A DNA stretch of 41,822 nucleotides from Escherichia phage vB-Eco-KMB41. Below the pieces are notes generated by a model, which was given only the letters and a program-made list of their open reading frames with translations, was not told the DNA's origin and made no database searches. How positions within the stretch are numbered: position 1 is the first letter of the stretch; each line of letters begins with the position of its first letter. A program made the position numbers and the translations under genes. The DNA lies in the sequence record OR539216.1; one strand, written 5' to 3'. Shown here in pieces: positions 1-41,822 of the stretch.

Positions 1-61
1 TATCCGATCGGGCCGGACTCGGATCTGGTTGCCCGGTTGAGCGAATATCTTTACCCGACTG

Positions 62-81
62 AATAGCACGAATTGCTAAAA
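62..81 (+). promoter_or_regulatory. Palindromic box site 1 (AATAGCACGAATTGCTAAAA; core TAGCA-N5-TGCTA)
   Basis: Perfect 5-bp inverted repeat with 5-bp spacer; about 22 bp downstream lies TATTAT, then a GC hairpin, SD and ATG of 153..401. The stop codon of the wrap-around ORF (64..66) overlaps the box. Confidence 0.5.
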
Positions 82-152
82 GCGATTTATCAAATGTTGT
101 TATTATCTTTTCACCGGGCGGCAATGGGTCGCCCACTACCGGAGACGAGACG

Positions 153-401
153 ATGGCAAACTTAACAATCATTGTAAAAGGCGATCAAGAGCGCGGGCGT
201 CAGTGGTCACGCCACTTTAAAAACCTGCTCCCGGCGTTCGTGAAAACTGGCACAGTTAAGCGCCATCTCTCATGGAAAGCGCCGGAGTTAACAGGCGAGG
301 AGCCGGAACTGGAGGAGCGCGTGGACGAGTTCACCACACGCGGCGAGTACGAACTGAATCGCCTGATCCACCGTAACAAGATCCGCGCCGACGAATATTA
401 A
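153..401 (+). CDS. hypothetical protein (82 aa)
   Basis: ORF with GGAGACGAG SD-like stretch upstream; no recognisable motif. Confidence 0.55.
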   Translation: MANLTIIVKGDQERGRQWSRHFKNLLPAFVKTGTVKRHLSWKAPELTGEEPELEERVDEFTTRGEYELNRLIHRNKIRADEY

Positions 402-406
402 CAGCC

Positions 407-422
407 TGGCCCTTCGGGGCCA
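407..422 (+). promoter_or_regulatory. Intercistronic GC hairpin with UUCG tetraloop (GGCCC-TTCG-GGGCC), immediately 5' of SD
   Basis: Stem-loop followed by CCCAGGAGC and ATG at 441; near-identical cassette recurs at about 13193..13225. Confidence 0.45.
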
Positions 423-440
423 TCCACCCAGGAGCTACTT

Positions 441-803
441 ATGGCAATTACAGTTAACACTCGTTTCCCGACATACACGGACGCTCTGATCGACTCGCAT
501 CGCGTCCAGGCGCTTCTCCGTGTGAACACATGCGCGAAGCTGGCCCCGGTATCGTGCAACGTGTACGAGCGCGAGAACAAGGGCGAAAAGCTGGGGTTCG
601 GCTACGTGCTGCGCGTCGGTCCGATCACAATCCACTGTAGAGGGATCACCCGGTACTCCGTGGACTACCACGACGAGGGGAGCGGCTGGACTTGCGACGC
701 GGTGACGGCGGAGGACGCTATACAAGAGGCTTACGAGTACCTGGCGAAGCGCCTCCAGTGTCTCCAGCTTGGGATCGCCATCCTGTCGGACGCTGCCGAA
801 TGA
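441..803 (+). CDS. hypothetical protein (120 aa)
   Basis: ORF with AGGAG SD about 7 nt upstream; ATGA stop/start overlap with the next ORF. Confidence 0.6.
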   Translation: MAITVNTRFPTYTDALIDSHRVQALLRVNTCAKLAPVSCNVYERENKGEKLGFGYVLRVGPITIHCRGITRYSVDYHDEGSGWTCDAVTAEDAIQEAYEYLAKRLQCLQLGIAILSDAAE

Positions 804-1036
804 TCCCGGAGAAGGTCCAGCGAAAAGCCGACGAGATTCTGGCCCGGTATTACGCGAAGGAGATCGCGCCTAAGAGGTTGAAGGGGTTCGGCAAGGTATC
901 AGCGTTCAACGTTGGCTATAGCTGGCGGCTCGTAACGTGGGACGAGGGGGAGACGTGGGATCTTTTGTCCCACGAGGAGTACAACAACAAAACGCGGGGC
1001 CGTCGTCAGCGGCTCCAGGTCAAAGGCAAAAGGTAA
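800..1036 (+). CDS. hypothetical basic protein (78 aa)
   Basis: Internal ATG of ORF 692..1036 chosen because it gives an ATGA overlap with 441..803; the longer upstream extension is Arg/Gly-rich and overlaps the previous gene. Confidence 0.45.
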   Translation: MIPEKVQRKADEILARYYAKEIAPKRLKGFGKVSAFNVGYSWRLVTWDEGETWDLLSHEEYNNKTRGRRQRLQVKGKR

Positions 1037-5031: not shown

Positions 5032-5050
5032 TTTAGCAAAAAGTGCTATT
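5032..5050 (-). promoter_or_regulatory. Palindromic box site 2 (TAGCA-AAAAG-TGCTA)
   Basis: Same oriented box, followed about 22 bp downstream (minus sense) by TATTAT, then SD and ATG of 4653..4976. Confidence 0.45.
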
Positions 5051-13716: not shown

Positions 13717-13950
13717 ATGAAGGAGCCTAACATGGCAGAATTAAAGGCCGTTTGCCTCGTGAAGCAAGTCCGAGAAGCGAAAGGCATCCAGCAGAAAGAT
13801 TTAGCGGAGCGAATCGGCATGATCCCGCATCAGTTGAGCCGCTACGAAAACGGGCACGAATTGCCATCTGTAACTAACCTCTGCCGGATCGCGAAGGCGC
13901 TCGACGTCTCGATCGCGGATCTGATTGAAACAGGAGTAAACCACGATTAA
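13717..13950 (+). CDS. helix-turn-helix transcriptional regulator (XRE/Cro-like)
   Basis: HTH signature QKDLAERIGMIPHQLSRYENG and LCRIAKALDVSIADL; alternative start at 13732 has AAGGAG SD. Confidence 0.75.
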   Translation: MKEPNMAELKAVCLVKQVREAKGIQQKDLAERIGMIPHQLSRYENGHELPSVTNLCRIAKALDVSIADLIETGVNHD

Positions 13951-16258: not shown

Positions 16259-19200
16259 TTATTGTTGCTGCTGCTGTTCGGTTGCTGCCGCCCTGCCACC
16301 TGCGCCGGAAAAGAATCCGACGATCCCGGCTCGGTTAACGGCTGCTTTCTCCTCCGGGCTGAATGCCTCATACAAGGCCCGCCACTCCGGGGAGTTCGCC
16401 GCCGCTTGCTCGGCCTCTCGGACGAACGTCCGGCCCGCTGGGGTCAGCTTCCCGGAACTCTGCGCGGCTGCGGCTTGCATAAGTTTGGAGAAGTCCGGGG
16501 ACGAAAGCAAGTTGTCCGCCAGTACCGAACGAGGCACACGAGCGCCCCGCGCCGCCTGAGCCGCCGACAATGCCGCGTTACCTGCCGGACCTGCCGCCAG
16601 ATAAGCCGCCGTGTGCTTCGCCAGCCAGCCCCCCGCGCCGTACAGCTTGGACAAGACGCCGCCCGCGTTCGGGTCGTCGAAGCGCTTCACGAAGTCGGAG
16701 ATCGATCCGGTCGTGGTGGTAAAGCGTTTCGCCCGGTCGATGCCATTCGCCACGCGGTAGATCTGCATGAGGCGCACACGCTGATCGCGCGGTAGGTGCT
16801 TCATGACATTGCCTAACGTCCCGTTTGCCTGGGCGGTCTTGTACCAGTCCACGAAGCCGGGGATCGCGAAGGTATCGCGGGCGCTACGGTTCCCCAGGGT
16901 CCGCTCCAGCGCGTTAGCCACTACGTCGCCTTTGAGGCTCTCCGGGGTTGCAGCCATCAGGCGGTCCCAGTCCTTCGCGCTGCCGCCTTTCTTGCCCAGG
17001 TTTAAGATCGCGTTCTGCACTTTCCCGGTGATCGAGTCGGTGAGGTTCTTTCCGAGTGCGTCCTGGGCGATCGTCTCCAGATCCTTACGGCGTTTAACGA
17101 GTTGTTTCGCCACGTTCCAGTCGTCCGCCGCGCCGTACTGAGCCGCGACTTTCTCCTGGTCGTCAGTCAGGCGGGCGTAAAGCTGTTTAAGTGCGCCCGT
17201 CTCCTCGTCCTTGAACGGACCAGATTTTTTGTTGAGCGCCTGGCCCACCTGCTTACGGAGCGTGTCGATCCGCGAGTAGGTCGGAATGGTCGCTACGTCC
17301 TGATCCGGGAGGCCCGTCGCCGGGTCCACCTTGCCAGGCTTCGGAGCCATCCAGTCGAGCGCCTTACGTTCTGCGCTGGAGAGATACGCCTCGCCGCCTA
17401 ACTCGTCAGCCTTCGCCGTCAGATAGTCCACGGTGCTGTCCGGCCTTACTTGCGCGTTACGCGGGATCTTCGCCGCGATCGCGTTATAAGCCTTCTCCGC
17501 CTCGTCGCCCAGACCGTCGATCACCGCACGAGTGCGGGCCGTGAACGCCTGATCAATGGTCTGCGCGTTCATGCTTGACATGCTATCGATCAGCTCGTCC
17601 GCCTTCTCGCCTAAGCGGGAGATCCCGTTTAACTGCTGCGTCTCCAGCGCGGAGCCTTTACGGCTCACAAGCTGCTGGATCGTGCTGCGGAAATTCGTGT
17701 CTCGCGCGTAAGCCGCCGGGGTCAGTTGATCCTCCAGCCCCAGATCGCGGGCCGTCTTGATCAGCTTCTTGTCCACGTCCGCCATGTTCGCCAGGTCGAT
17801 CGCGTCGTCAGAAGCGCGGAGGGCCTCCCCGTTCGCGCCCTGGACGTTACGGTCTGGCGTCAGTCGGAACTTGCTCGCGTCACGAGCCACAGCGTCGGAA
17901 ATGCCCGCCTCGGTCGCCTGGGTGGATCGGGTTGCGTCTGCTGCGGCGTCAGCGGCCCCACCTGCGGCCCCCTCCGGCGCTCTGAGCGCGTTCCACAGTT
18001 TACCCGCGCCACCGATAACAGCACGACCGATCGCCTCTCCTGCGGGCGCTAGTGCGATATTCGTCAGCGTCTCCTCCGGGTCGCCTCGACCAGCGGCCAC
18101 CGCGCCGGGGACGGCACGAGCCGCCGGGGCTGCGATCCAGTTCTGGGTCATATCGGCGAGACGGGTCGCGAAGCTGGTCGCGTCCGGCGCTTCACGGACC
18201 AGTCCGAGGAGTTCGGTCGCCGCCTGAGCCTTACGCGGGCCAGGCAGTGGCGCGAGCATATCCCCGATCAGGGTCCCGATCTGCGCGTATTTGTCCGTGG
18301 GAGCCAGACCAGGGATCCCCCCAGGCGTGATAGTCGGCGCTTGGGTGTTCTGGTCCACCAGCCCGACGCCCTTCCCGGCATCGGTCACGGCTTGGGAGAT
18401 CATGTTCGCCAGCGAGATCGGCGTGTTCAGCAGGTCGATCCCCGTCTGAGCCACGCCGCGAGCGCCCTGATCCAGTGAATGGAGGACGGTCTGGCCTAAC
18501 TGTTCCCAGTTTCGGGCGGCTTCTTCGTTTGGATCGGTTTGTCCGGGCTGATTAGCTCCGCTCTGGACTCCGTTACTGTTCGGCGCTGCCGCCCCTTGTG
18601 CGCCATCAGATCCCGCTTGATTAGGTGCATTGCCAGCGGCGACGGCTGCGACTTGTTGATCGGCTCCGGGTGCTCCGGCTCCGTCTGCGGCTGCTGCTGG
18701 GGGTTGGTAGTCCCCGAACTGGTCGAAAACATTACCGCCAGCGCTCGGAGATCGTGCGCTGGTTGCGTATTGAGTAGGTTCGCCGCTGCCATCGCTGCCA
18801 GCGCCTCGCCCAGTCCATTGATTAAACCGATCATCCACATATTGACGCCCCTCCGGGCCAGGGGTTGCCTGTCCCGCCAGTTGTTTGTCTACATTGCCGG
18901 GGCCGTCATGGTAAGCCTGGAGGGCGGTCCCCCAGTCTCCATAGCGCTGATACATGCGGGAAAGGTACTGCGCCCCCGCGTCCGCTTGCATTGCTGGATC
19001 CTGCGCCAGCGCGTCCGGGTCGTAGCCCATTTCGCGGGCCGTGTCCGGCATCACTTGCGTAAGTCCCATTGCGCCTTTTTTCGATCGCGCCGCTGGGTTG
19101 CCGCTGGACTCTTTTCCCATTAACTGGGTCATGAGTCCGGCGGGGATCCCCCATTTAGCCCCGGCGCTCTCTACCACATCAGCATAACCCGAACCGGACG

Positions 19201-19285
19201 ATCCGGGCTGAGTTGGGACCTGATTAGGGAGCGCCGTCGCATTTTCCGGCATATTCTGATCGAACTGGTCAAAGATGTTAGCCAT
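16259..19285 (-). CDS. ejection/internal virion protein with N-terminal lytic transglycosylase (SLT) domain (1008 aa)
   Basis: SLT signature near N-terminus (LMGKESSGNPAA...GAMGLTQVMPDTA...AQYLSRMYQRYGDW), long Gly/Ala/Gln-rich linker, large C-terminal body; occupies the position of P22 gp16. Confidence 0.75.
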   Translation of the reverse strand: MANIFDQFDQNMPENATALPNQVPTQPGSSGSGYADVVESAGAKWGIPAGLMTQLMGKESSGNPAARSKKGAMGLTQVMPDTAREMGYDPDALAQDPAMQADAGAQYLSRMYQRYGDWGTALQAYHDGPGNVDKQLAGQATPGPEGRQYVDDRFNQWTGRGAGSDGSGEPTQYATSARSPSAGGNVFDQFGDYQPPAAAADGAGAPGADQQVAAVAAGNAPNQAGSDGAQGAAAPNSNGVQSGANQPGQTDPNEEAARNWEQLGQTVLHSLDQGARGVAQTGIDLLNTPISLANMISQAVTDAGKGVGLVDQNTQAPTITPGGIPGLAPTDKYAQIGTLIGDMLAPLPGPRKAQAATELLGLVREAPDATSFATRLADMTQNWIAAPAARAVPGAVAAGRGDPEETLTNIALAPAGEAIGRAVIGGAGKLWNALRAPEGAAGGAADAAADATRSTQATEAGISDAVARDASKFRLTPDRNVQGANGEALRASDDAIDLANMADVDKKLIKTARDLGLEDQLTPAAYARDTNFRSTIQQLVSRKGSALETQQLNGISRLGEKADELIDSMSSMNAQTIDQAFTARTRAVIDGLGDEAEKAYNAIAAKIPRNAQVRPDSTVDYLTAKADELGGEAYLSSAERKALDWMAPKPGKVDPATGLPDQDVATIPTYSRIDTLRKQVGQALNKKSGPFKDEETGALKQLYARLTDDQEKVAAQYGAADDWNVAKQLVKRRKDLETIAQDALGKNLTDSITGKVQNAILNLGKKGGSAKDWDRLMAATPESLKGDVVANALERTLGNRSARDTFAIPGFVDWYKTAQANGTLGNVMKHLPRDQRVRLMQIYRVANGIDRAKRFTTTTGSISDFVKRFDDPNAGGVLSKLYGAGGWLAKHTAAYLAAGPAGNAALSAAQAARGARVPRSVLADNLLSSPDFSKLMQAAAAQSSGKLTPAGRTFVREAEQAAANSPEWRALYEAFSPEEKAAVNRAGIVGFFSGAGGRAAATEQQQQQ

Positions 19286-28052: not shown

Positions 28053-28071
28053 TTTAGCAATTCGTGCTCTT
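28053..28071 (-). promoter_or_regulatory. Palindromic box site 4 (TAGCA-ATTCG-TGCTC, one mismatch)
   Basis: Oriented box followed about 22 bp downstream (minus sense) by TATAGT and a GGCGGGG-loop-CCCCGCC hairpin, upstream of 27502..27978; overlaps the stop codon of 28054..28359. Confidence 0.5.
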
Positions 28072-28359
28072 TCTGATTTGAATCTCGTCCCACTCGCTCC
28101 AGTGCTCATACTGAGCCAGCCAGCGGCGGAGACGTTCACGGCGTCGGTAGGTTGCAGCCAGCCCGCGCCCGTCACTTTTCCGTAATTTGATCCGGTGGAG
28201 TACGCGCTCCAGCGGCTCGCCGTCAGGACGGAAACCGCGCAAAATGACCGCCGTCTCCTCCTCGTTAATGTAGATCGTGAACTTGTTACATTTGTGCTCG
28301 CGCAAGTGGGCTTTTACGATGCAAAGCCACTCAATTTTAGAGAGGCGATGTTTTTTCAT
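28054..28359 (-). CDS. hypothetical basic protein (101 aa)
   Basis: ORF visibly more AT-rich than its surroundings; 4-nt overlap with upstream 77-aa ORF; no P22 counterpart at this position. Confidence 0.6.
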   Translation of the reverse strand: MKKHRLSKIEWLCIVKAHLREHKCNKFTIYINEEETAVILRGFRPDGEPLERVLHRIKLRKSDGRGLAATYRRRERLRRWLAQYEHWSEWDEIQIRKSTNC

Positions 28360-28683: not shown

Positions 28684-30918
28684 TTAGACGCCTTCGAGTC
28701 CCATCTGGCGGTCTGCGGTCTGCCGGGCTTGCTGCTCTGCCAGTTCCTGCGCCCGCTGGTCGCTCTGCTGGCTGTAGCCCTGGCCCTGAGCCTTGAGGAA
28801 CAGATCCGCCTGTTTGTGGGCGTCGCTGTTCTGCTGGCTCACGTACTTCTGGAGGACGGCGATCGCGTTCAATAGCTGATCCTGCGGGATTGCCGCCGCC
28901 TCTGCCATCGTCTTGACCGTCTGGGCGTTTTTCAGTTGACCGTCGGACGCGGTGCTCTGCGCTTTCAGGGTCAGATCTAAACGCTTGTTCTCCTGCTCCA
29001 TCACTGCGGCCTTGCCCTGGTCGGCTACGCCCTGCGCGGCTACCATTTCGGCGTCCGGCTGGCTCTGGGAGGCTTGCTGGGCCTGGGCGACCATCGCCTT
29101 TTCTTCGTCCGTCTGCGGCTTGATGATGCCATTCAGGAGAAGCTGGCGGCGGCTGTATTCTTTGAAGTCCTGCAAGCCTTCGCCGTCCATGTTCATGATG
29201 ATCAGGCCCATGACTACAGCGGCGTTCGGGTCGCCTGGTGCCATCGACTGGAGGAGATTCGTCAGGCTGCGAACGGTTGCGACGCGCTTCGTCTGGGAGG
29301 ATTCGCCCACGTCGGCCTCGACCTCATATTTCCCGCGCTTGAGGTCGTTAATCGCGATCGCCTCGTCAGTGTCACGGTCGATCACTTTCCCGGTCATTAA
29401 CACGAGATCGTCCGTTCCGTCCTCGTTCTTGATGCGGACATAGTTCTCCGAGCCGTAGACCTTGCGGGCCGCGCTGAGGTAAACGCGTCCGCAATGGCGG
29501 AGGGTTTTCCCCAGGTTGTCCATGTAGAGAGCGCCCTGTCCGTCCATGCGGGCGAAAATGGCCTCCACGGTTTCGGTCGCCAGGTTCGACGGTAGCGCCT
29601 CCACCTGGGACGAGCCGACGATCTGCTGGATAGTGCTCCCGGTGTACTGTAGGACCGCTGCCAGCGCCGGAGAGAGCGGAGTCGATGGCGTGTATCCTAA
29701 CGGCCCGGCTTGCTGCACGACCTCACCAGCGGCATTACGGAGCGATTTCGCGGGCAAGTATGCCGGGCGCTTCGTGTTACGTTCCCCCCAGGCGTCCGCC
29801 AGCTTGCCGGGAATCATATCAATGTCCATGATCGGGATGTTATCGCCGCCAGACTGCGCGGCCTGGTCCGCCATCATGGACACGATCAGGTTTTCCAGAC
29901 GTTGCGCGTCGAGGGCCTGGGTCGCATGACCGCTTACGCGCTCCATGTTGTCGATGAAGGAGCGGCGGGCGTTGAACACGAAGATCGGGATCCACTCGAA
30001 CGGGATCAGCTTCGGCTCCTCCAGCCATTCGCCGCCAGTCATAAGGCCGCAATAGACCTTACGGCGTTTCACCTTGCGGTCCTTCTGGCGCTCCCAGCCT
30101 CCGGCCTTAAGCTCGTCCTCGATCTGTTCGATATCGTCCTCGTCGTAGACCTCCACCTCCCCGGTGATCGGGTTCTTATAGGAGATCACGGTGGTGTCCT
30201 CGATCTTCACCTCGTAGTAGCGGGCGATGTAGATCGCGTCCTTCGTGGCCCAGTCGAATTGTTTCCCGGTATCGATCGCCATCAGGTCCTCCGGTGCGAG
30301 GGCATCGGGATAGCGCTCCTCGTACTTGTCCGGGGTCATGCTGAATAGCTCCGCCATCCACATAGCATCACTGCGATCGTACATTTTGGAGTCCTGATCG
30401 ACGAACAGGCACGAGGCCGGATCATAGATCGGATAAAACACGATATGCCGCGTCTCGTTGTCCGGGTCGAACTCGTCCTCCAGTTCGGTGTCCATGCGGA
30501 AAGCGCCCATTCCCCCGGTCACGCCGTCGTCGTAGGTGTTGTCTACGGCTTCCGGCCCGTTTGACTCCTGGAAGTCGGCGCGAAACTTGCCGTTCAGCTT
30601 GTCCGCCAGTTCCTCGGAGGCCTGGGTGTCTTTCGGGCGGAACGTCACGGAGACGCGGTTCAGGCGGTAGTCGGAAATGATGCGATCGACCTCGCGCCCG
30701 ACTTTGTTAAGTTCGAATCGAGGGTATTTCTGGAAACGCTCGTCGTCCATAGCAAAGCCGGAGTTCGTCGAGCCTTCCCACTGAGCGCCGGGGATGCGGA
30801 CGAAGCGGGCCGTCTCGATCATCTTCTTGCGGCTCTGCTCCTCGCTGCCGATCGCGGCGCTTAATTTGTTTCGGGCGCATTCCTGCCAGTTCTGCGCCTT
30901 CTTCGTGACTCGTGCCAT
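28684..30918 (-). CDS. portal protein (P22 gp1-like)
   Basis: Blocks match P22 portal as recalled (YDRSDA, ARYYEVK, NPITGEVEVY, RKVKRRKVY) with a Gln/Ala-rich helical C-terminal barrel region; 744 aa. Confidence 0.9.
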   Translation of the reverse strand: MARVTKKAQNWQECARNKLSAAIGSEEQSRKKMIETARFVRIPGAQWEGSTNSGFAMDDERFQKYPRFELNKVGREVDRIISDYRLNRVSVTFRPKDTQASEELADKLNGKFRADFQESNGPEAVDNTYDDGVTGGMGAFRMDTELEDEFDPDNETRHIVFYPIYDPASCLFVDQDSKMYDRSDAMWMAELFSMTPDKYEERYPDALAPEDLMAIDTGKQFDWATKDAIYIARYYEVKIEDTTVISYKNPITGEVEVYDEDDIEQIEDELKAGGWERQKDRKVKRRKVYCGLMTGGEWLEEPKLIPFEWIPIFVFNARRSFIDNMERVSGHATQALDAQRLENLIVSMMADQAAQSGGDNIPIMDIDMIPGKLADAWGERNTKRPAYLPAKSLRNAAGEVVQQAGPLGYTPSTPLSPALAAVLQYTGSTIQQIVGSSQVEALPSNLATETVEAIFARMDGQGALYMDNLGKTLRHCGRVYLSAARKVYGSENYVRIKNEDGTDDLVLMTGKVIDRDTDEAIAINDLKRGKYEVEADVGESSQTKRVATVRSLTNLLQSMAPGDPNAAVVMGLIIMNMDGEGLQDFKEYSRRQLLLNGIIKPQTDEEKAMVAQAQQASQSQPDAEMVAAQGVADQGKAAVMEQENKRLDLTLKAQSTASDGQLKNAQTVKTMAEAAAIPQDQLLNAIAVLQKYVSQQNSDAHKQADLFLKAQGQGYSQQSDQRAQELAEQQARQTADRQMGLEGV

Positions 30919-30933
30919 GTTAATCTCCGGGGG

Positions 30934-32556
30934 TTAGCGGTTACTCGGCACATTATAGCCGGAATAATCTTCGTCTTTCACTGCCTCCGGTGGCTGCATT
31001 AACATGCAAAGCACGTCAGCCATCCCCGGCGACTTCATTTTGAGTTTGGTCCGCATCTGCGGCTTAGGCATCCTAGCAAATTTTCCGTTGGTGTTATAAA
31101 TACGCGGAATACGGCACACTTCCGCGCGGAGTTTGGTCATATGCTCCCCGATCCCCTCGCTGTCGAGGCTGATCATCTCGTCCGGGTTGTGATATTCGCC
31201 CTTTACTACCGCCTGGTAGGTCTTTTCGAAGCGCTTCCGTAAGAGGTAGATGTCCTGGGAGCCACGGTTCGCGAACGCGTCCACGTTCTTCTGAATGTTG
31301 TCCCCGCTGGCCTTGTTGTTCAGCCAGTGATCCAGCTCCACCGGGTTGTCCGGGAACTTCACGCCGTCCCCGGCGTTGTAGCCGTCTACGAGGACCTTCG
31401 TCCCGGCGTAAGCCTCCGTGACCTGGCGACGTAAGCCAGCGCCCAGTCCCGCGCGGTCCCACACGAACGCCTCCACGCCGTGATCCTTCGCCGTGTTGAT
31501 CGCCTTGTCTACGCTGTCGTTCGCGTCCCCTTCGAACCACTCCTCCATGTGAGTGACTACGGAGCCGTAGCGCTCGCCGTAAGCCTTGTTATCCGCGCCA
31601 ACGTCCGCCGGGTCGAGTGCGCCGATACGCATCCCCGAAGGCTTCCATCCGAGTTTCTTGTGGGCGTCCACGGCTGCGTCGAACCATTCCGCCGGGATAA
31701 TGGCGTCAGGAACAGAATCGTTAAAATGGCCTTCCCATACGTGGTTAAACAGCGCTTTCGAGAGGGTTACGCGGTCGAACTCCATCTCCGATCGAAGCTC
31801 TGGGGGGAACCACGGATTATCTGACCAGTTCACGCGGATAATCAGGTGGAGATCGTCCTCGTAGATGCCGTCCCGCTGGAGATCCTCCCAGAATGGGATG
31901 AGAAAACGTTGAGAGAACGCATCCTCCGAGGATCCGGGGTTGGCGGTGAACAGCATCATGCCGCCCGTTTCGCGCATGGTCGGGGTTAACTGGCGGAGAG
32001 ACTCGGCGGAAAAGGTCTGCGCCTCCTCGCCCCAGAAGCGACGGAAGCCGAACGCGGACTTAACTCCCGCCGGGTCCCTGGCCATCCCCTTAAATCGGAT
32101 GATCGCGCCGTTGGAGTGGCGGATCTCCTTCTCCAGTACCTCGAAGCCGTCCAGCCCGTAAGCCTCGATCCGGTTGACGAGGAGCGGGTGGACTGAATCC
32201 TTGATCGATGCCTGATACTCACGGAGACACATCGCGCTCGCTGCCTCGTCGTGGGCGTCAGCGTCGATGATCCCCCCGACGGTGAGCGACTTCCCGGAGC
32301 CACGTCCGCCGACCAGGATAATAAAGCGCTTCGGACGGAGGAGGATCGGGGTCAGGACCTCGGCGATCGTGATGTCGTGCGGCTCACTGGTGTAAACCCA
32401 TTCGCCCTTTACTTTTTTCATGTTGTAGAGGTGCTTCGCGCTGGTCCCGTCCGGCTCATATACGCCGTAGATCAGCCCGCCCTCTCGCGCCACGTAAGCG
32501 GCCCGCCCCTCCAGGCGAGCCAGTCGATCGAGATTATCCTTTCTGTTTTTTGCCAT
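30934..32556 (-). CDS. terminase large subunit
   Basis: N-terminal ATPase with Walker A VGGRGSGKS, C-terminal nuclease-like region, position immediately upstream of portal. Confidence 0.9.
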   Translation of the reverse strand: MAKNRKDNLDRLARLEGRAAYVAREGGLIYGVYEPDGTSAKHLYNMKKVKGEWVYTSEPHDITIAEVLTPILLRPKRFIILVGGRGSGKSLTVGGIIDADAHDEAASAMCLREYQASIKDSVHPLLVNRIEAYGLDGFEVLEKEIRHSNGAIIRFKGMARDPAGVKSAFGFRRFWGEEAQTFSAESLRQLTPTMRETGGMMLFTANPGSSEDAFSQRFLIPFWEDLQRDGIYEDDLHLIIRVNWSDNPWFPPELRSEMEFDRVTLSKALFNHVWEGHFNDSVPDAIIPAEWFDAAVDAHKKLGWKPSGMRIGALDPADVGADNKAYGERYGSVVTHMEEWFEGDANDSVDKAINTAKDHGVEAFVWDRAGLGAGLRRQVTEAYAGTKVLVDGYNAGDGVKFPDNPVELDHWLNNKASGDNIQKNVDAFANRGSQDIYLLRKRFEKTYQAVVKGEYHNPDEMISLDSEGIGEHMTKLRAEVCRIPRIYNTNGKFARMPKPQMRTKLKMKSPGMADVLCMLMQPPEAVKDEDYSGYNVPSNR

Positions 32557-32971
32557 AGCCCAGATCCTGGAATGATCGTTCCGTCATATGGAATAAATGC
32601 CCCACCAGATACGCCTCCGGCTCGTCGTTGTTGGCGTCGTGCGTGAATCCAAGCGTGTCGGCGATGAAGTTCTTAACGTGGACCAGTTCGTGGGCGATGG
32701 TCGTCCGCCAGTGCGGCCCACGCTTTACTCCCACTAAGACCAGTTTCACGCCGTCGTCCGCGTGGTACTCCGTGGCGCTGCCCTGCGGGAAAGGATCAAG
32801 CATGGCCCACCGTGGGAAGCATTCGAGCATTTTCCCCACCATCTCCTCGTCCTGCGGGTCGTAACATACAATAAAGTAAGGGTAAGGTGAGGCGGTGAAC
32901 CATTTCAGGCCCAGCGCCTCCAGTCTGCCGTAAGTGTCCGGCGGTAGCTTATTCTTGCGGGTTCTCGCCAT
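32534..32971 (-). CDS. hypothetical protein with HExxH zinc-metallopeptidase-like motif (145 aa)
   Basis: IAHELVHV followed by EPEAY about 25 residues downstream; sits between TerS-like and TerL with 23-nt overlaps on both sides. Confidence 0.55.
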   Translation of the reverse strand: MARTRKNKLPPDTYGRLEALGLKWFTASPYPYFIVCYDPQDEEMVGKMLECFPRWAMLDPFPQGSATEYHADDGVKLVLVGVKRGPHWRTTIAHELVHVKNFIADTLGFTHDANNDEPEAYLVGHLFHMTERSFQDLGYGKKQKG

Positions 32972-33503
32972 TCAGTCGGGCCTCCAGTGCGTCCAGACGC
33001 TTGACCATCTCGGACATTTCGAACACTTCCGCGCCGTGGCGGATCATCTTCACCATTGCCTCCGCCGCGTCGAACGGTAGCTCCCCATTCGCCACCAGGT
33101 CCTCGATCTCGGTGATACGCTCGGACGGGGTGGATCCGGTCAGTTCAAAGCAATAGGTCGGGCTGGTCGGCTTCGTGTAGGGGATTAAGCGGCTCATGAT
33201 ATCGCGCATCATGGATCCGTCTACCATTGCCATCTGGATCGCTCGCTGGATGAAGATATCCTCCGTAAGTTGGATCTCCTCGTACTCGTCAACCATGATC
33301 GGCTCGCCCGTCTCCGGGTCGCGCTTCACCTCGCCAGTGTTGGGATCGACGTCCTCGACCTTGCGCCCGGTGCGCTCCTTGATGCGGACTTTTTTCAGCG
33401 CTTCGAGGAGTAACGTCCGGTTCTGCTTCGCCCGGCCCCGGCGCTCTGGCTGGTTGTCTTTGGAGAACTTCTTCCCCTTCGTTAAATTCTGTTCGTTAGC
33501 CAC
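32949..33503 (-). CDS. putative terminase small subunit
   Basis: Basic N-terminus (KGKKFSKDNQPERRGRAKQNRTLLLEALKK), acidic helical remainder, two genes upstream of TerL; assignment positional and compositional only. Confidence 0.5.
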   Translation of the reverse strand: MANEQNLTKGKKFSKDNQPERRGRAKQNRTLLLEALKKVRIKERTGRKVEDVDPNTGEVKRDPETGEPIMVDEYEEIQLTEDIFIQRAIQMAMVDGSMMRDIMSRLIPYTKPTSPTYCFELTGSTPSERITEIEDLVANGELPFDAAEAMVKMIRHGAEVFEMSEMVKRLDALEARLNGENPQE

Positions 33504-36120: not shown

Positions 36121-36139
36121 TTTAGCAATTCGTGCTATT
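36121..36139 (-). promoter_or_regulatory. Palindromic box site 5 (TAGCA-ATTCG-TGCTA, perfect)
   Basis: Followed about 22 bp downstream (minus sense) by TATAGT, then GGCGGGA-loop-TCCCGCC hairpin, SD and ATG at 36048; overlaps the stop codon of 36135..36416. Confidence 0.55.
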
Positions 36140-36416
36140 CGTCCCAGCGCCCCGGCTTGAACAGGACGCCGCGCCGCCAGTCCTGCCACGTCCAGTAAGG
36201 CCAGCCAAACGCCATCAGCACGACGGCGCATATCAGCATAAGCGCGACGATGAAGGCCGCGAGGGGTAGGAGGGCTGGCGGGATGTGCGCCGCCTCCTTG
36301 CGCGTCAGGTTGGCGAGGTGCTTCGCCCCGCCTCCCTGGGTGAACTCGACCACGAACCAGGCTATGCCGACCAGCCACCACGCGAAGATCCAATTTAACA
36401 TTTCAATACATCCCAT
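36135..36416 (-). CDS. small integral membrane protein (93 aa)
   Basis: Two strongly hydrophobic segments (WIFAWWLVGIAWFVV and LPLAAFIVALMLICAVVLMAF). Confidence 0.6.
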   Translation of the reverse strand: MGCIEMLNWIFAWWLVGIAWFVVEFTQGGGAKHLANLTRKEAAHIPPALLPLAAFIVALMLICAVVLMAFGWPYWTWQDWRRGVLFKPGRWDE

Positions 36417-37033: not shown

Positions 37034-37386
37034 TCGCCCGGCTCCTTCGCGTCGCGGTAGCCCATGATCAGCGCTTGCACGACGTCGAACACGTCAGCCC
37101 TGATCGACTGGTGGAGGAACAGCCCGAAGTGTCGGCGTTGCACTCCGTCCGAGAGGTTCCAGTGTTGGAGGTGGTAGTCATGTAAGACCATCGGCTCCAT
37201 CTTGGGCGGCTCGTCCCTGGTCAGGTCGATCAGCGTGTCGTCGTGCTTGAACTCAATCTCCCTGATCATCTGCGTGTCAGGTGTTACGGTGCGGCGCTTG
37301 CCGTCGAACGGCCCGCCGATCAGCAGGGCCAGCATGTACTCCGGTACGGCTGGCGGCTGGTGGTTGCGGTAATGTGTCGGGTGCAT
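37027..37386 (-). CDS. hypothetical protein (119 aa)
   Basis: ORF preceded by GC hairpin and GGGAGGA SD. Confidence 0.6.
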   Translation of the reverse strand: MHPTHYRNHQPPAVPEYMLALLIGGPFDGKRRTVTPDTQMIREIEFKHDDTLIDLTRDEPPKMEPMVLHDYHLQHWNLSDGVQRRHFGLFLHQSIRADVFDVVQALIMGYRDAKEPGEW

Positions 37387-37431
37387 GGTAGATCCTCCCA
37401 GGATGCCCGGCTCTCGACCGGGCGGTGGTTG

Positions 37432-37707
37432 TTAGATGTTCGCGGCGATGAATGCCAGGACTTCGCGGAGGTGCTTCTCGTCGCGGATAGTGGCTGGCAA
37501 TTCCTCTTTCACGCTGCTGTCGAGATAGATATTGCCATTCCATGTATAAGAGCCGTTCGGGTTGACCAGGTAGGAGAACATCCATTCACAATCGTTATCC
37601 GCTTCCCACACGCACAGCAGGATCTTATCGTCGTCCAGGTCCTCGATCGTCACATCCAGGCCGCGCTTCGCTGCGAATTTCTTGGTGGTTGCGTTGACTG
37701 CTTTCAT
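37432..37707 (-). CDS. hypothetical acidic protein (about 91 aa)
   Basis: Start set at MKAVNA (internal Met of ORF 37432..37764); lies downstream of palindromic box site 6. Confidence 0.6.
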   Translation of the reverse strand: MKAVNATTKKFAAKRGLDVTIEDLDDDKILLCVWEADNDCEWMFSYLVNPNGSYTWNGNIYLDSSVKEELPATIRDEKHLREVLAFIAANI

Positions 37708-37780
37708 GGTCTTGCCCTCTGGTTGTTGTGGGCGTCTCGTCGCCCGGTGAAAACATATTATCAATTATCACCGGGGACGT

Positions 37781-37799
37781 TTTAGCAATTCGTGCTATT
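37781..37799 (-). promoter_or_regulatory. Palindromic box site 6 (TAGCA-ATTCG-TGCTA, perfect)
   Basis: Followed about 22 bp downstream (minus sense) by TAATAT, then GGGCG-loop-CGCCC hairpin and the ATG at about 37707. Confidence 0.55.
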
Positions 37800-37977
37800 T
37801 ATCCTTTCTCATTCGTCGGAGTGATCGGACCAGATCGACGACGGCCCAGCCAGACGCCAGCAGGAACGGCGCGAGGACCGCCAGCTTTTCCCAGTTGGTC
37901 AGGATCGTGTCGGTCCCCTTCGTCATGCCGATCCAGGCTATCACCAGGACCTCGTAAGCGAACGCGAGCCAGATCAT
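37795..37977 (-). CDS. small membrane protein (60 aa)
   Basis: Two hydrophobic segments and basic C-terminus RSLRRMRKDK. Confidence 0.5.
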   Translation of the reverse strand: MIWLAFAYEVLVIAWIGMTKGTDTILTNWEKLAVLAPFLLASGWAVVDLVRSLRRMRKDK

Positions 37978-38207
37978 TTACCCAGCCTAACCTTGCGTAC
38001 GATCGTCGCTGCGGTGTCGTAGGCGTCGCGCTGCCGTGGCGAGACGCTACTTTCCCGTAGCTCCACCAGTCCACGCTCCAGGACTTCCAGCGCGGCCCAG
38101 CGCCCGGATAGGTCCATGATCACCTCCTCGGCGTCGCGGTTGATCTTGCCTGGCGGGTGTCCTTCCGCCATCAGCTTGATCTCCTCGGTGGTCATTGGCT
38201 TAAGCAT
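37974..38207 (-). CDS. hypothetical protein (77 aa)
   Basis: ORF with 4-nt overlap to downstream gene. Confidence 0.5.
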   Translation of the reverse strand: MLKPMTTEEIKLMAEGHPPGKINRDAEEVIMDLSGRWAALEVLERGLVELRESSVSPRQRDAYDTAATIVRKVRLGK

Positions 38208-38508
38208 CAGCGCCCCCTTTCGGCCCCAGTTCCTGGTCGATAAAGTCCTGGGCCATCTCGTCCGCGCTGTCGTGGCGTCCGTCCTGCTCGGCCTGGCGAA
38301 TGGCGTCGATCTGCTTCTGGCGCTGATCAGCCATGAAGCCCTCGACCGCCTGGTGTGCGAGCGCCGTCGCCTGGTTGTGGCTGTAGCCCTGTTTGCGGAA
38401 GCGGTTGAACGCGTTCTCCAGCAGTGAGGCGCGTTGGTTCGGGCCTACATACATACGCGAGATATCCGCGACGGCTGATTTCTTCTCTGCATTGTCTTTC
38501 ATCATCAT
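38200..38508 (-). CDS. hypothetical protein (102 aa)
   Basis: ORF with helical, charged composition. Confidence 0.55.
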   Translation of the reverse strand: MMMKDNAEKKSAVADISRMYVGPNQRASLLENAFNRFRKQGYSHNQATALAHQAVEGFMADQRQKQIDAIRQAEQDGRHDSADEMAQDFIDQELGPKGGADA

Positions 38509-38538
38509 CTCCTCGTTTCTTCGTCGTCGTGACGGGCC

Positions 38539-38727
38539 TCACATCAGGCCCAGCATGTTAAACAGGATCGCCGCGAGTGATATCACGATCGCGCCGATGG
38601 TTGTCGCTACCATCAGGAAGTAATTCCACAATCCGAAGCGCTCGATCCAGTCGTTCGATCGTACTGGTTGAGTGTTCCCGATCGGTGTCCGTCTGGGGAA
38701 TAAAATCACGTTGTTATTGTCGCTCAA
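38539..38727 (-). CDS. small membrane protein (62 aa)
   Basis: C-terminal TM segment (FLMVATTIGAIVISLAAILF); apparent TTG start preceded by AAAGGTGA SD. Confidence 0.45.
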   Translation of the reverse strand: MSDNNNVILFPRRTPIGNTQPVRSNDWIERFGLWNYFLMVATTIGAIVISLAAILFNMLGLM

Positions 38728-38982: not shown

Positions 38983-40638
38983 TTAAAAGTCGTTCAGATC
39001 GTCGTCCTGATCCTCCGCTTTTGAGGATGGTTTCCAGTCCGTCGGGAGTGGCTTCTGATCGCGGATTCCACCCAGGAGCGGAGCCGCTTCTTTCGTGGCG
39101 GTCAGCGTCTCGTCTCCGGCGACCTTGATGATCCCCATCGTGTTAGTGGCGTGAAGGAATGCGCGACGGAATGCCGTCTTGTCGATCTGCGGGTCCGCGC
39201 TGTTCCGCGCCCACTCACTGAGCGCCGCCTTTGTCAGCTTCGGAGTGCGGCCTCTGCGCTTGCTGTTGTACTCGTGGACGAAGTTCACCAGTCGGATCGC
39301 GTTCTCCTCCTGCTGGCTGCGCTTCGGCCCCTCGTCGGCCTTCTCCTCCTTGTCGCCAGTCGGTACAGCCTCCAGCGCGTTAATGACGACCAGCGTCCCC
39401 AGGTTGTCGCCAATCTCCCACGCTGCCGGGTTCTGCTGCGCTTCGGGGCGTACTGGCTTCATGCGGGCCATTGCCTCGCGCTTCATCTTGACCAGTTCAG
39501 GCGGGAGCGGGACGGATTGCGTCCGCATGGCGCGAGGAGGGAGGAGCGCACAGCCTTTCGCCTTCGTGTGCTCAATGACAAAAAGCTCCTTGTCCTTGCA
39601 CTTCTTCACCATGATCTCGAATCCGGCGTTTGCCCGGAGGGTTGACGCGCCACGAGCGCCGCGCTCGGTGTCCTTCCCGGTGTGGTGGATCACCATCACG
39701 GCACAGTTGAGCATTTCCGCCAGCTTCGCCGCGTTCGCCATCAGGATCGCCGCCACGTTGTTGTCGTTCTCGTTGAAGTCCTGCCCGCCTACCCATTCGA
39801 TCACCTTGCCGTCCGCGTCACGCTTCGCGGTCTGGCCCACCTTCTGGCCCGCGCTGTTGGCGCTGTAGGTATCAATGACCACGAGGGCCGGTGCGTTCTC
39901 CTCAATGCCGAAGAACGGGGAGGAGAGGACCTTCCCGGCGAAGCGCTGGAGGATCTCCGCGTTATGGAGGGGGACCTGTTCGCCGATGATAAACAGGTTA
40001 TTCAGATCCTTGTTGCCGTTGCGCTTGTACTTCCATCCCGCGTAACGTTCACGGACGCCGCTCGCATCCTCCGGCGCGAAGTACAGGACGGATCCCTGTC
40101 GGACCGGAAGCCCGGCGAAGTCGATCCCGGTGGCGACACAAATCGCCATCTGTAACGCGCAAAAAGTCTTTTTAGCGCCCGACTCGCCGACCAGGAAGCC
40201 CACGGAGCGCTCCGGGACCAGCGACTGGATCACATAGTTAACGGGGGTGATTTTGTTCCCGGCGCGTAACTTGTCCAGGAACTCGTCCGGCTGGTCTGCC
40301 AGCAGTTCGGCGATCGCCTTCTTGTCCTTCTCGCGCTGGTCCTCTGTCGTCTCGCTGCGTGGCTTCGCGACGGGCTTCTGGTTCTCGTCCAGTACGAGGT
40401 CCCACTGGTGATCGTCCTCATTGTCGCCGAACGCGTAAAGCTCCATCTCCGCCAGTGATAGGCCCTGCTCTGCTGCCTGGTCTGCCGCGATCGCCATCTG
40501 CTGGTCCATGTCCGCCTCTGTCGGCTCCGGCGCTGCGTTCAGCCATTCCGGGACGGGTTCCAGACGAGCCTCGCCTGGGAGGATCTGGTCCAGTAGTTCC
40601 TCGCGGGTCGGTTCCTGCTGTTCTTCGTCGTGCATCAT
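38983..40638 (-). CDS. RecA-fold ATPase of the AAA_25/RepA-like type (putative replication initiator or helicase), 551 aa
   Basis: Walker A GESGAKKT, Walker B LVVIDTYS, downstream VMVIHHTGKD motif typical of RepA-like ATPases; acidic N-terminal ~130 aa; flanked on both sides by GGTTAC repeat clusters. Confidence 0.75.
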   Translation of the reverse strand: MMHDEEQQEPTREELLDQILPGEARLEPVPEWLNAAPEPTEADMDQQMAIAADQAAEQGLSLAEMELYAFGDNEDDHQWDLVLDENQKPVAKPRSETTEDQREKDKKAIAELLADQPDEFLDKLRAGNKITPVNYVIQSLVPERSVGFLVGESGAKKTFCALQMAICVATGIDFAGLPVRQGSVLYFAPEDASGVRERYAGWKYKRNGNKDLNNLFIIGEQVPLHNAEILQRFAGKVLSSPFFGIEENAPALVVIDTYSANSAGQKVGQTAKRDADGKVIEWVGGQDFNENDNNVAAILMANAAKLAEMLNCAVMVIHHTGKDTERGARGASTLRANAGFEIMVKKCKDKELFVIEHTKAKGCALLPPRAMRTQSVPLPPELVKMKREAMARMKPVRPEAQQNPAAWEIGDNLGTLVVINALEAVPTGDKEEKADEGPKRSQQEENAIRLVNFVHEYNSKRRGRTPKLTKAALSEWARNSADPQIDKTAFRRAFLHATNTMGIIKVAGDETLTATKEAAPLLGGIRDQKPLPTDWKPSSKAEDQDDDLNDF

Positions 40639-40664
40639 TGTTTAATCACCTCATGGTTACATTA

Positions 40665-40701
40665 CGGGAGACAATGTAACCGCTATTTGTCACCGCGTCA
40701 A
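40665..40701 (-). promoter_or_regulatory. Sigma70-like promoter (TTGACG-17 bp-TACATT) overlapped by inverted repeat GGTTACATT-N9-AATGTAACC
   Basis: Read on minus strand: -35 TTGACG, 17-bp spacer, -10 TACATT, then AGGTGA SD and ATG of the ATPase; the 9-bp-arm palindrome covers the -10 and start region. Confidence 0.5.
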
Positions 40702-40779
40702 TTCAGCGCCAGTAAAGAAAACTCTTTACATCACGGTTACGTTACCTTAAGGTGATAGCCGAACACGACGGAGGTCATT

Positions 40780-41217
40780 ATGTCACTGTTTGACGATGAA
40801 GCGCCACGCGCCCCACTTCGGGCCAACGTAGCGCCACGTAAGACGCCACAGGAGAGACTCCTGGAGATACTGGAGAAGGTCCGCTCCACCGATCCGTCCA
40901 TCCATGACGCGATCGAACAGGGGAGAATGGATCCTTATCTGCCGACGGTCGAGACGCGGAACGCTTTTCTAACTCTGCGCCCGTCGGAGCAAATATTCGC
41001 GGCGTTCTGGGACTGCCCCGGCGTCGATCGTAAGAAGTTAATGGACCTATGCCGACACGCCGGAAAGATGGAGCGAGCCGGAAAATTACGGGACCTTAAG
41101 GTGGACCGCTCGAAGCTGGCGACCACTGAAAGCGGGATCCCCCCAGGCGTCGAGATTGGCCCGGAGTTGGCCCTCGCCGCACTACAATGCAAGCAAGCCA
41201 TGAGGAAAGAGAGATGA
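40780..41217 (+). CDS. hypothetical protein (145 aa)
   Basis: ORF with GGAGG SD 7 nt upstream, first gene of the rightward unit leaving the divergent control region; the overlapping minus-strand ORF 40935..41798 is rejected. Confidence 0.65.
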   Translation: MSLFDDEAPRAPLRANVAPRKTPQERLLEILEKVRSTDPSIHDAIEQGRMDPYLPTVETRNAFLTLRPSEQIFAAFWDCPGVDRKKLMDLCRHAGKMERAGKLRDLKVDRSKLATTESGIPPGVEIGPELALAALQCKQAMRKER

Positions 41218-41822
41218 TCAGATATATCGCAGTAACCGAAGAAGCGGACCAGGACGAGAGCATGGCGTCCCACATCCCGGAGAGTCAGATCGAGCGCATC
41301 GATCGCGCTGCTAATGGTAAGGCTATCCTGATCGTTCGTGAATATCGCGAGAAGTGCCGCGAAGATTCCGAGTGTTACGGTCGGAAGGAATGGCGGATCG
41401 ATGGCTACGAGTCGCAAGAGCGCTACAGCGTGATGAAGTTCGACGACCTGATCGCCTGGCTGAATGGCATCCCGCCGGAGCCGATGGTGGTTGACTTCGA
41501 TCGCCTGTCGCCGGAGGAGCGCGAGAACGTCATGGACAATCTGGTGGCGGCGCGTCATGCCCTGCGCAACGTGAACAGTAAGACCGTACTCCAGCCAGCG
41601 CCAGCGCATCACGTCGGCCTCGACTCGGACGTGTGGGCCGTGGTCAAACTGCTGGAGGCTCGCGAGTGGGCCGAACATTGCACGACGACCGAACTCGGCG
41701 GACGTCTGGAGTCGGAGATCACGAAGCTGGTCGGGACTGAGAACGAAACGGCGGGCAAGCTCAAACGGGCGGAGCAATTGCTGGCGGAGATCCATCACGC
41801 GGTCAATAACGACGGCGGGCTT
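41214..41822 (+). CDS. hypothetical protein, 3'-truncated at window end (203 codons here; continues in frame at 1..66 if the molecule is circular)
   Basis: ATGA overlap with 40780..41217; open to the last base; frame closes exactly at the window end and resumes at position 1 to a TAG at 64..66. Confidence 0.6.
   Translation, partial: MIRYIAVTEEADQDESMASHIPESQIERIDRAANGKAILIVREYREKCREDSECYGRKEWRIDGYESQERYSVMKFDDLIAWLNGIPPEPMVVDFDRLSPEERENVMDNLVAARHALRNVNSKTVLQPAPAHHVGLDSDVWAVVKLLEAREWAEHCTTTELGGRLESEITKLVGTENETAGKLKRAEQLLAEIHHAVNNDGGL

Follow-up and report, generated by a model that had tools for sequence, protein, structure and literature searches.

A conserved gene divided between the two ends of the Escherichia phage vB-Eco-KMB41 record is best explained by arbitrary opening of a circular map

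The window analyzed here is the whole 41,822-nt sequence record of Escherichia phage vB-Eco-KMB41, read on one strand from its first to its last base. Its last rightward open reading frame begins at ATG 41214, which overlaps the TGA of the upstream ORF (40780..41217) in an ATGA arrangement and is immediately preceded by a purine-rich, Shine-Dalgarno-like run, GAGGAAAGAGAG. From this ATG, 609 nt corresponding to 203 codons are free of stop codons, and the last base of the window completes the frame, exactly as the first-pass annotation had described. From position 1, the same phase yields 21 further codons, YPIGPDSDLVARLSEYLYPTE, before a TAG at 64-66; the coordinates of this claimed continuation were likewise exact, and its codons correspond to the conserved C-terminus of a protein family. 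Joining the end of the window to its start and re-reading the gene, a check that had been proposed together with these claims, gave a single product of 224 aa that is homologous to its relatives from end to end. The features at the junction are as follows.

41214..41822, plus strand: 5′ part of the split gene, codons 1-203 of 224; homologue of sortsyn_28 and of Lumpael AZF88763
1..66, plus strand: 3′ part of the split gene, codons 204-224 followed by TAG 64-66
40780..41217, plus strand: upstream gene, 145 aa, homologue of IME_EC2 gp60; phrog_30497, function unknown

The split gene is the second in a rightward operon which, after a palindromic box and a leader, runs into small genes and a lysis cassette. 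Its TAG was reported to overlap the box, and the three bases of this stop codon are indeed the first three of a 15-nt palindrome, TAGCACGAATTGCTA, at 64-78.

An open frame across the break carries no statistical weight on its own, as it is expected by chance over half the time. The window has a G+C content of 59.2% and stop triplets occur at 2.75% per triplet; over the whole window, 58% of plus-strand positions are followed by 21 stop-free codons, and 63% of positions sit within a stop-free stretch of 224 codons or more on one of the two strands. The antisense frame over the junction is also open, for 320 codons, and the prior for an arbitrary cut falling in phase is one in three. The observation goes beyond chance because the homology extends across the break and because the substitutions follow a coding-type pattern: relative to the closest relative, they fall 3, 2 and 16 times at codon positions 1, 2 and 3 of the plus frame, and the codon differences consist of 14 synonymous and 7 non-synonymous changes. 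A general caution follows for genomes of this composition: at 59% G+C only homology or reads can show circularity, and in-frame continuation cannot.

A search of 5.8 billion proteins identified 22 homologues of the split gene, with E values down to 1.6e-141, and all 22 were intact across the position of the break. The best homologue (P0001) matches all 224 residues with 97% identity, and its gene is centrally placed on an independent contig of 41,495 bp (L004), while the next one (P0002) lies on a 41,671-bp contig (L005); in both cases, the neighbors are the same genes as those found at the two ends of the window. When the last 10 kb and the first 10 kb of the window were compared with L004, one block ran through the junction with 95.3% identity over 4,051 bp, and the junction block obtained with L005 showed 97.3% identity over 816 bp. 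Within 100 nt on either side of the junction, 200 of 200 nt were aligned to each of these two independent contigs with 0 gaps, at 96.5% and 96.0% identity, respectively. Judging from these relatives, which are 95-97% identical, no base appears to have been lost or doubled at the join. The contiguity also extends to named phages whose records are opened elsewhere: a 600-nt junction query aligned as one piece to each of sortsyn, sortregn, Lumpael and ST231, and the first 8 kb of the window matched these four as well as IME_EC2. At the protein level, the residues around the break (NNDGGL before it and YPIGPDSDLV after it) are conserved between the joined protein, sortsyn_28, Lumpael AZF88763 and an ORF spanning the origin of the IME_EC2 record, and …AVNNDGGL and YPIGPDSDLVARLSEYLYP… are contiguous across the break position in the aligned relatives. 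The exact junction 60-mer had no match in IMG/VR, look-ups with the exact proteins of 40780..41217 and 153..401 returned nothing on record, and none of 5,426 complete E. coli genomes contained a match to the junction. The two ends of the window share no terminal repeat; hence the sequence bears no mark of circular assembly.

The protein encoded by the split gene is a mosaic. Its N-terminal ~130 residues are unrelated between the lineage of the window and that of IME_EC2 and sortsyn, with no DNA alignment over ~41300-41500, and its C-terminal ~95 residues are ~90% conserved between the two. An alignment with the 22 homologues contained 20 invariant columns, 18 of which were located within residues 139-190. 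This distribution suggests that domains have been swapped at a conserved junction around residue 135. PHROG matches to the product covered residues 136-180 only, and sequence similarity places it in the sortsyn_28-like family (phrog_20174 / phrog_19524, function unknown). Sortsyn gene 28 (QHR72893) and Lumpael AZF88763 belong to the same family and occupy the same site, between the gp60 homologue and the box and leader; they encode proteins of 202 and 217 aa, respectively, as compared with 224 aa here, and were annotated whole in records that open elsewhere. Pfam contained no family for the split gene or its neighbors, and in PHROGs these genes matched families of unknown function only. An AlphaFold model of P0001, based on a 22-sequence alignment led by this 97%-identical protein, was of mediocre quality (pLDDT 67.5, pTM 0.34), with a beta domain at the N-terminus and a C-terminal half that is helical, and a search of the PDB with this model gave no fold match at E <= 0.001. 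In BFVD, the model matched only the sortsyn homologue, apart from a weak resemblance of its N-terminal beta domain to small phage proteins, some of which are labelled 'flagellar and swarming motility protein'; we drew no function from these matches.

The extreme C-terminus also differs by lineage. In the window and its two closest relatives, which carry 4 extra bases, the frame stops at the TAG that opens the box, whereas in IME_EC2, sortsyn and Lumpael it extends through the box as far as the final TAA. Thus, the IME_EC2 protein ends in ...YPDSTNC, with the TAA at the far edge of the box, and the window protein in ...YPTE.

We then considered the genome as a whole. Alignment with IME_EC2 (KF591601 / NC_047742, the Murrayvirus type species) gave 11 colinear blocks with identities of 72-89%, which together cover 92% of the window. 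Coverage was likewise 92% with sortsyn and with ST231 and 86% with Lumpael, block identities over all relatives being 68-91%, and the taxonomy lines of the best matches place all five matching phages in Murrayvirus. By ICTV convention, members of a genus share nucleotide similarity of ~70% or more over the whole genome with the type species. Overall identity to IME_EC2 was ~75%, which is our own estimate and not a VIRIDIC value, and gene order was conserved; the phage thus belongs to Murrayvirus. It forms a species-level lineage separate from IME_EC2, from which it differs by a genome that is 312 bp longer and by the unrelated N-terminal half of the split gene. The two phages share their gene order, the record origin to the base, the same split gene and the same box and leader element after it. 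The virion module annotated in the relatives is P22-like and includes portal, scaffold, coat, adaptor, needle and ejection proteins and a colanidase tailspike. Two packaging genes were identified in the window.

30934..32556, minus strand: large terminase (TerL), 540 aa; Pfam Terminase_3, E 1.8e-31; closest solved structure 4idh
28684..30918, minus strand: P22-type portal, 744 aa; PF16510 (P22_portal), E 1.8e-155

The likeness to P22 and Sf6 thus comprises the portal, the terminase, the virion module of the relatives and a circular map of ~42 kb. By contrast, the early and replication genes are not lambdoid, and the relatives are described as virulent. Scans of the whole window for tRNA genes and Rfam families gave no hit, and Pfam scans of seven selected ORFs gave no integrase-type domain. 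The window does not look like an integrated prophage or a chromosomal fragment, because its junction is missing from the E. coli genomes searched, it carries no tRNA gene, and phages of ~41-42 kb account for it.

Four complete Murrayvirus records proved to share a single map in cyclically permuted form, with a separate opening point in each. Expressed in window coordinates, the openings are:

IME_EC2: position 1
sortsyn: between 18425 and 18426, inside a 1008-aa ejection-protein gene
Lumpael: ~32560, at terL
ST231: between 38372 and 38373

The first and last bases of the record map directly beside each other in both sortsyn and ST231. The sortsyn record (MN850623, 42,116 bp) offers a parallel to the split gene, as its position 1 falls in the ejection/transglycosylase gene (window 16259..19285, minus strand), and its first and last CDS (1-2125 and 41705-42116) probably represent two parts of a single gene. 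In the alignment, the first base of IME_EC2 corresponds to the first base of the window. The RefSeq entry of IME_EC2 carries the circular flag and lists no CDS beyond gp60 (40537..40980). An open frame of 209 codons nevertheless crosses the origin of that record (NC_047742.1, 40977-41510 plus 1-75) and corresponds to an unannotated homologue of the split gene, which is missing from the annotation because the origin splits it.

Taken together, the relatives in which the junction is seamless and the permuted records make it very probable that the window represents a whole genome whose map is circular and whose record was opened arbitrarily inside a gene. The first-pass annotation had proposed a circular or permuted complete genome from the open frame; the proposal holds on the evidence from relatives, and the open frame alone would have been insufficient. 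The end and the start of the window are contiguous in independent sequences, as expected if it represents the complete 41,822-bp genome of a virulent Murrayvirus podovirus. An arbitrary linearization point inside the 224-aa gene would leave its two pieces at opposite ends of the record, and the gene would be intact in replicating or concatemeric DNA and in packaged DNA. The opening point is that of IME_EC2, and the contig was most likely rotated onto this reference. A published description of vB-EcoP_KMB41 (OR539216) as a 41.8-kb Murrayvirus with 64 ORFs compared the phage with the reference EC2 and documents 'zeroing' of the genome on the reference (PMC11162368); deliberate zeroing of the window record on IME_EC2 is the most likely origin of its position 1. 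The split gene is therefore a linearization effect, in a genus that is already known and for which packaging ends are described in the literature, and does not represent new biology. It does have a practical consequence: gene callers working on linear records miss or truncate a conserved 224-aa gene, as has already happened in the IME_EC2 RefSeq record, and genomes zeroed on IME_EC2 inherit this annotation gap.

A separate matter is how the DNA is packaged. TerL aligned to PDB 4idh with an E value of 6.8e-91 (query residues 60-530 of 540; chain residues 20-480), a structure which we take to be the large terminase gp2 of the headful-packaging phage Sf6. Homology of the terminase and the portal to those of P22 and Sf6 supports 'P22-type headful' as a reasonable description. 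In P22, terminal redundancy amounts to a few per cent of the genome, and pac is located inside the small-terminase gene. The termini of IME-EC2 were previously mapped from read pile-ups (Li et al. 2014, PMC3896407; Table S4). Among the read starts published, which are the top 7 only, one dominant definite start (695 reads) varied by a few bases, and the opposite ends were slightly variable, about ten-fold weaker and located ~300 bp off, giving a redundancy of ~0.7%; the authors grouped the IME-EC2 terminase with the P22-like, SPP1 and ES18 enzymes and read their data as headful packaging (PMC3896407). We mapped the Table S4 reads to positions 37910 (forward) and 38209 (reverse) of IME_EC2, which correspond to 38170 and 38481 of the window.

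38170..38481, minus strand: predicted packaging-end region, 312 bp, from identity to the IME-EC2 terminal reads

Mapped onto the window, the dominant start read begins at 38481 and reads leftward, and the weaker opposite reads begin at ~38163-38170 and read rightward. On the strength of this sequence identity, the ends of the window phage are predicted to lie where those of IME-EC2 do, such that the terminase would make its physical ends ~3.4 kb to the left of the record end, near 38170-38481. The break at position 1 is uninformative on packaging, since it coincides with the arbitrary origin of IME_EC2 and the mapped ends are ~3.4 kb away. The start-site reads occupy 38452-38481, within an early minus-strand ORF (38200..38508); the terL start (32556) lies ~5.9 kb downstream of them, and the two ORFs that adjoin terL (32534..33503) are ~5 kb away. 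The predicted start would thus lie in an early ORF and not, as in P22, in the small-terminase gene. With its redundancy of ~0.7%, its sharp start and its very limited permutation, IME-EC2 fits the P22 definition only partly. The suggestion that a size of 41.8 kb fits headful-packaged P22-type genomes consequently stands as far as the homology of TerL and the portal is concerned, but the ends of the type phage are unlike those of classical P22.

These features leave room for another reading of packaging, in which the circular map is right and the DNA is not packaged by a processive headful mechanism but has nearly fixed ends, with a ~300-bp direct repeat and essentially no permutation. We consider this reading unlikely, yet deserving of serious attention. 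It is favored by the one sharp end of IME-EC2 and the confinement of the other to a few bases ~300 bp away, and by the spacing of the read sites, which is 300 bp in IME_EC2, 300 bp in sortsyn and 312 bp in the window. The sites also lie in a conserved island, with 82-98% identity over 37300-38700, in an early region that is otherwise divergent. The window record has no terminal repeat and the sortsyn record (42,116 bp) no terminal duplication, though assemblies collapse such repeats. In addition, the packaged length implied for IME-EC2, 41,510 + 300 = 41,810 bp, is exceeded by the unit genomes of the window phage (41,822 bp) and sortsyn (42,116 bp), so that a constant headful with ~300 bp of redundancy is impossible across the genus; either closely related phages differ in head capacity or it is the sequence that fixes the far end. 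Several observations speak against nearly fixed ends. TerL is of the Sf6/P22 type, in a clade linked to headful packaging (PMC3896407), and not of the T7 type, its closest solved structure being 4idh; the authors of the IME-EC2 study interpret their data as headful, with only the top 7 starts published; and, allowing up to 6 substitutions, neither Lumpael nor ST231 has a counterpart of the dominant-end 30-mer. The more general proposal that Murrayviruses may have an Sf6/P22-type terminase and yet nearly fixed ends, with a terminal repeat of ~300 bp determined by sequence and not by head filling, is, in our judgment, a somewhat more doubtful one. If it were true, the split gene would be irrelevant to packaging and the locus of interest would be 38170-38481. 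Nearly fixed ends are compatible with arbitrary linearization as the explanation for the split gene.

Arbitrary linearization is not compatible with a linear virion DNA that physically terminates at positions 1 and 41822, whether with fixed ends or with collapsed short terminal repeats, and with end-to-end deposition of both IME_EC2 and this phage. The start of IME_EC2 and the window at an identical base could mean a reproducible physical end, but the terminal reads of IME-EC2 lie ~3.3-3.6 kb from its record origin, that record is flagged circular, and zeroing on the reference is documented for the matching phage (PMC11162368). Moreover, a fixed end at this position would truncate a conserved gene unless it were in a repeat, and the ends share none. 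We therefore regard true ends at these positions as very improbable; because the origin is not a physical end, its sharing by two different phages is best explained by convention. Still less credible is the idea that the in-frame continuation is a coincidence and the window a fragment of a larger molecule, such as a prophage, with other flanking sequences: open frames are cheap at 59% G+C, as the 58% figure and the open antisense frame show, but the codons at 1..63 form the conserved C-terminus in 22 homologues, the junction is contiguous and gap-free in independent contigs of ~41.5 kb, 92% of the window is covered once by relatives of ~41-42 kb with the same gene order (86% for Lumpael), and neither a junction in the 5,426 E. 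coli genomes nor a tRNA gene nor, in seven ORFs, an integrase-type domain was found.

Finally, we analyzed the box that overlaps the end of the split gene. The palindrome has 7 matches in the window, as compared with 0.48 expected, and four oriented copies overlap stop codons, consistent with the earlier claim that gene ends overlap other box sites too.

64..78, plus strand: box copy 1 of 4 oriented copies, overlapping the TAG of the split gene
36123-36137, minus strand: box copy overlapping the TAG of ORF 36135..36416 (minus strand)
37783-37797, minus strand: box copy overlapping the TAG of ORF 37795..37977 (minus strand)
28055-28069, minus strand: box copy overlapping, at its other edge, the TAA of ORF 28054..28359 (minus strand)
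79..152, plus strand: conserved intergenic leader made up of 22 nt, TATTAT (-10-like), a hairpin GGGCG..CGCCC and GGAGA, followed by the ATG of gene 153..401

Each box belongs to an intergenic module, found at 64-152 (plus strand), 28069-27985 (minus strand), 36137-36050 (minus strand) and 37797-37712 (minus strand), that sits after a gene end and faces the downstream genes. The order within the module is the box, (T/G)AGCACGAATTGCTA, exactly 22 nt, a -10-like hexamer, a GC-rich hairpin and a GGAG-type ribosome-binding site. The hexamers are TATTAT, TATAGT, TATAGT and TAATAT, and the hairpin stems are 5-7 bp long and differ in sequence from copy to copy. With this spacing, the box would be centered near -42 of a putative transcription start, a position typical of class II activator sites. 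A promoter scan of 1..500 detected no canonical sigma-70 promoter, and the possibility that the box and TAnnAT form a sigma-70 promoter with TTGCTA as its -35 was rejected in view of the constant 22-nt spacing together with the empty scan. Four copies of the core GCACGAATTGCTA occur in each of IME_EC2 and sortsyn, three in Lumpael and 2-3 in ST231, and the box thus appears to be conserved in number across Murrayvirus.

Two box matches with 3 mismatches, at 5034 and 13852, were not counted among the module copies, as the downstream architecture is absent there. The latter (GGGCACGAATTGCCA, 13852-13866) falls within the gene for an XRE-like regulator (13717..13950) and encodes ...YENGHELPS... 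there; its resemblance to the box probably arose by chance from the coding sequence. Downstream of the first module, two genes past the junction (window 692-1036 region; L004 11423-11659), a 78-aa product has a precomputed Pfam assignment to ParE_like (PF24732) in the closest relatives, and appears to be a toxin-like small protein in the operon that leads to the lysis cassette.
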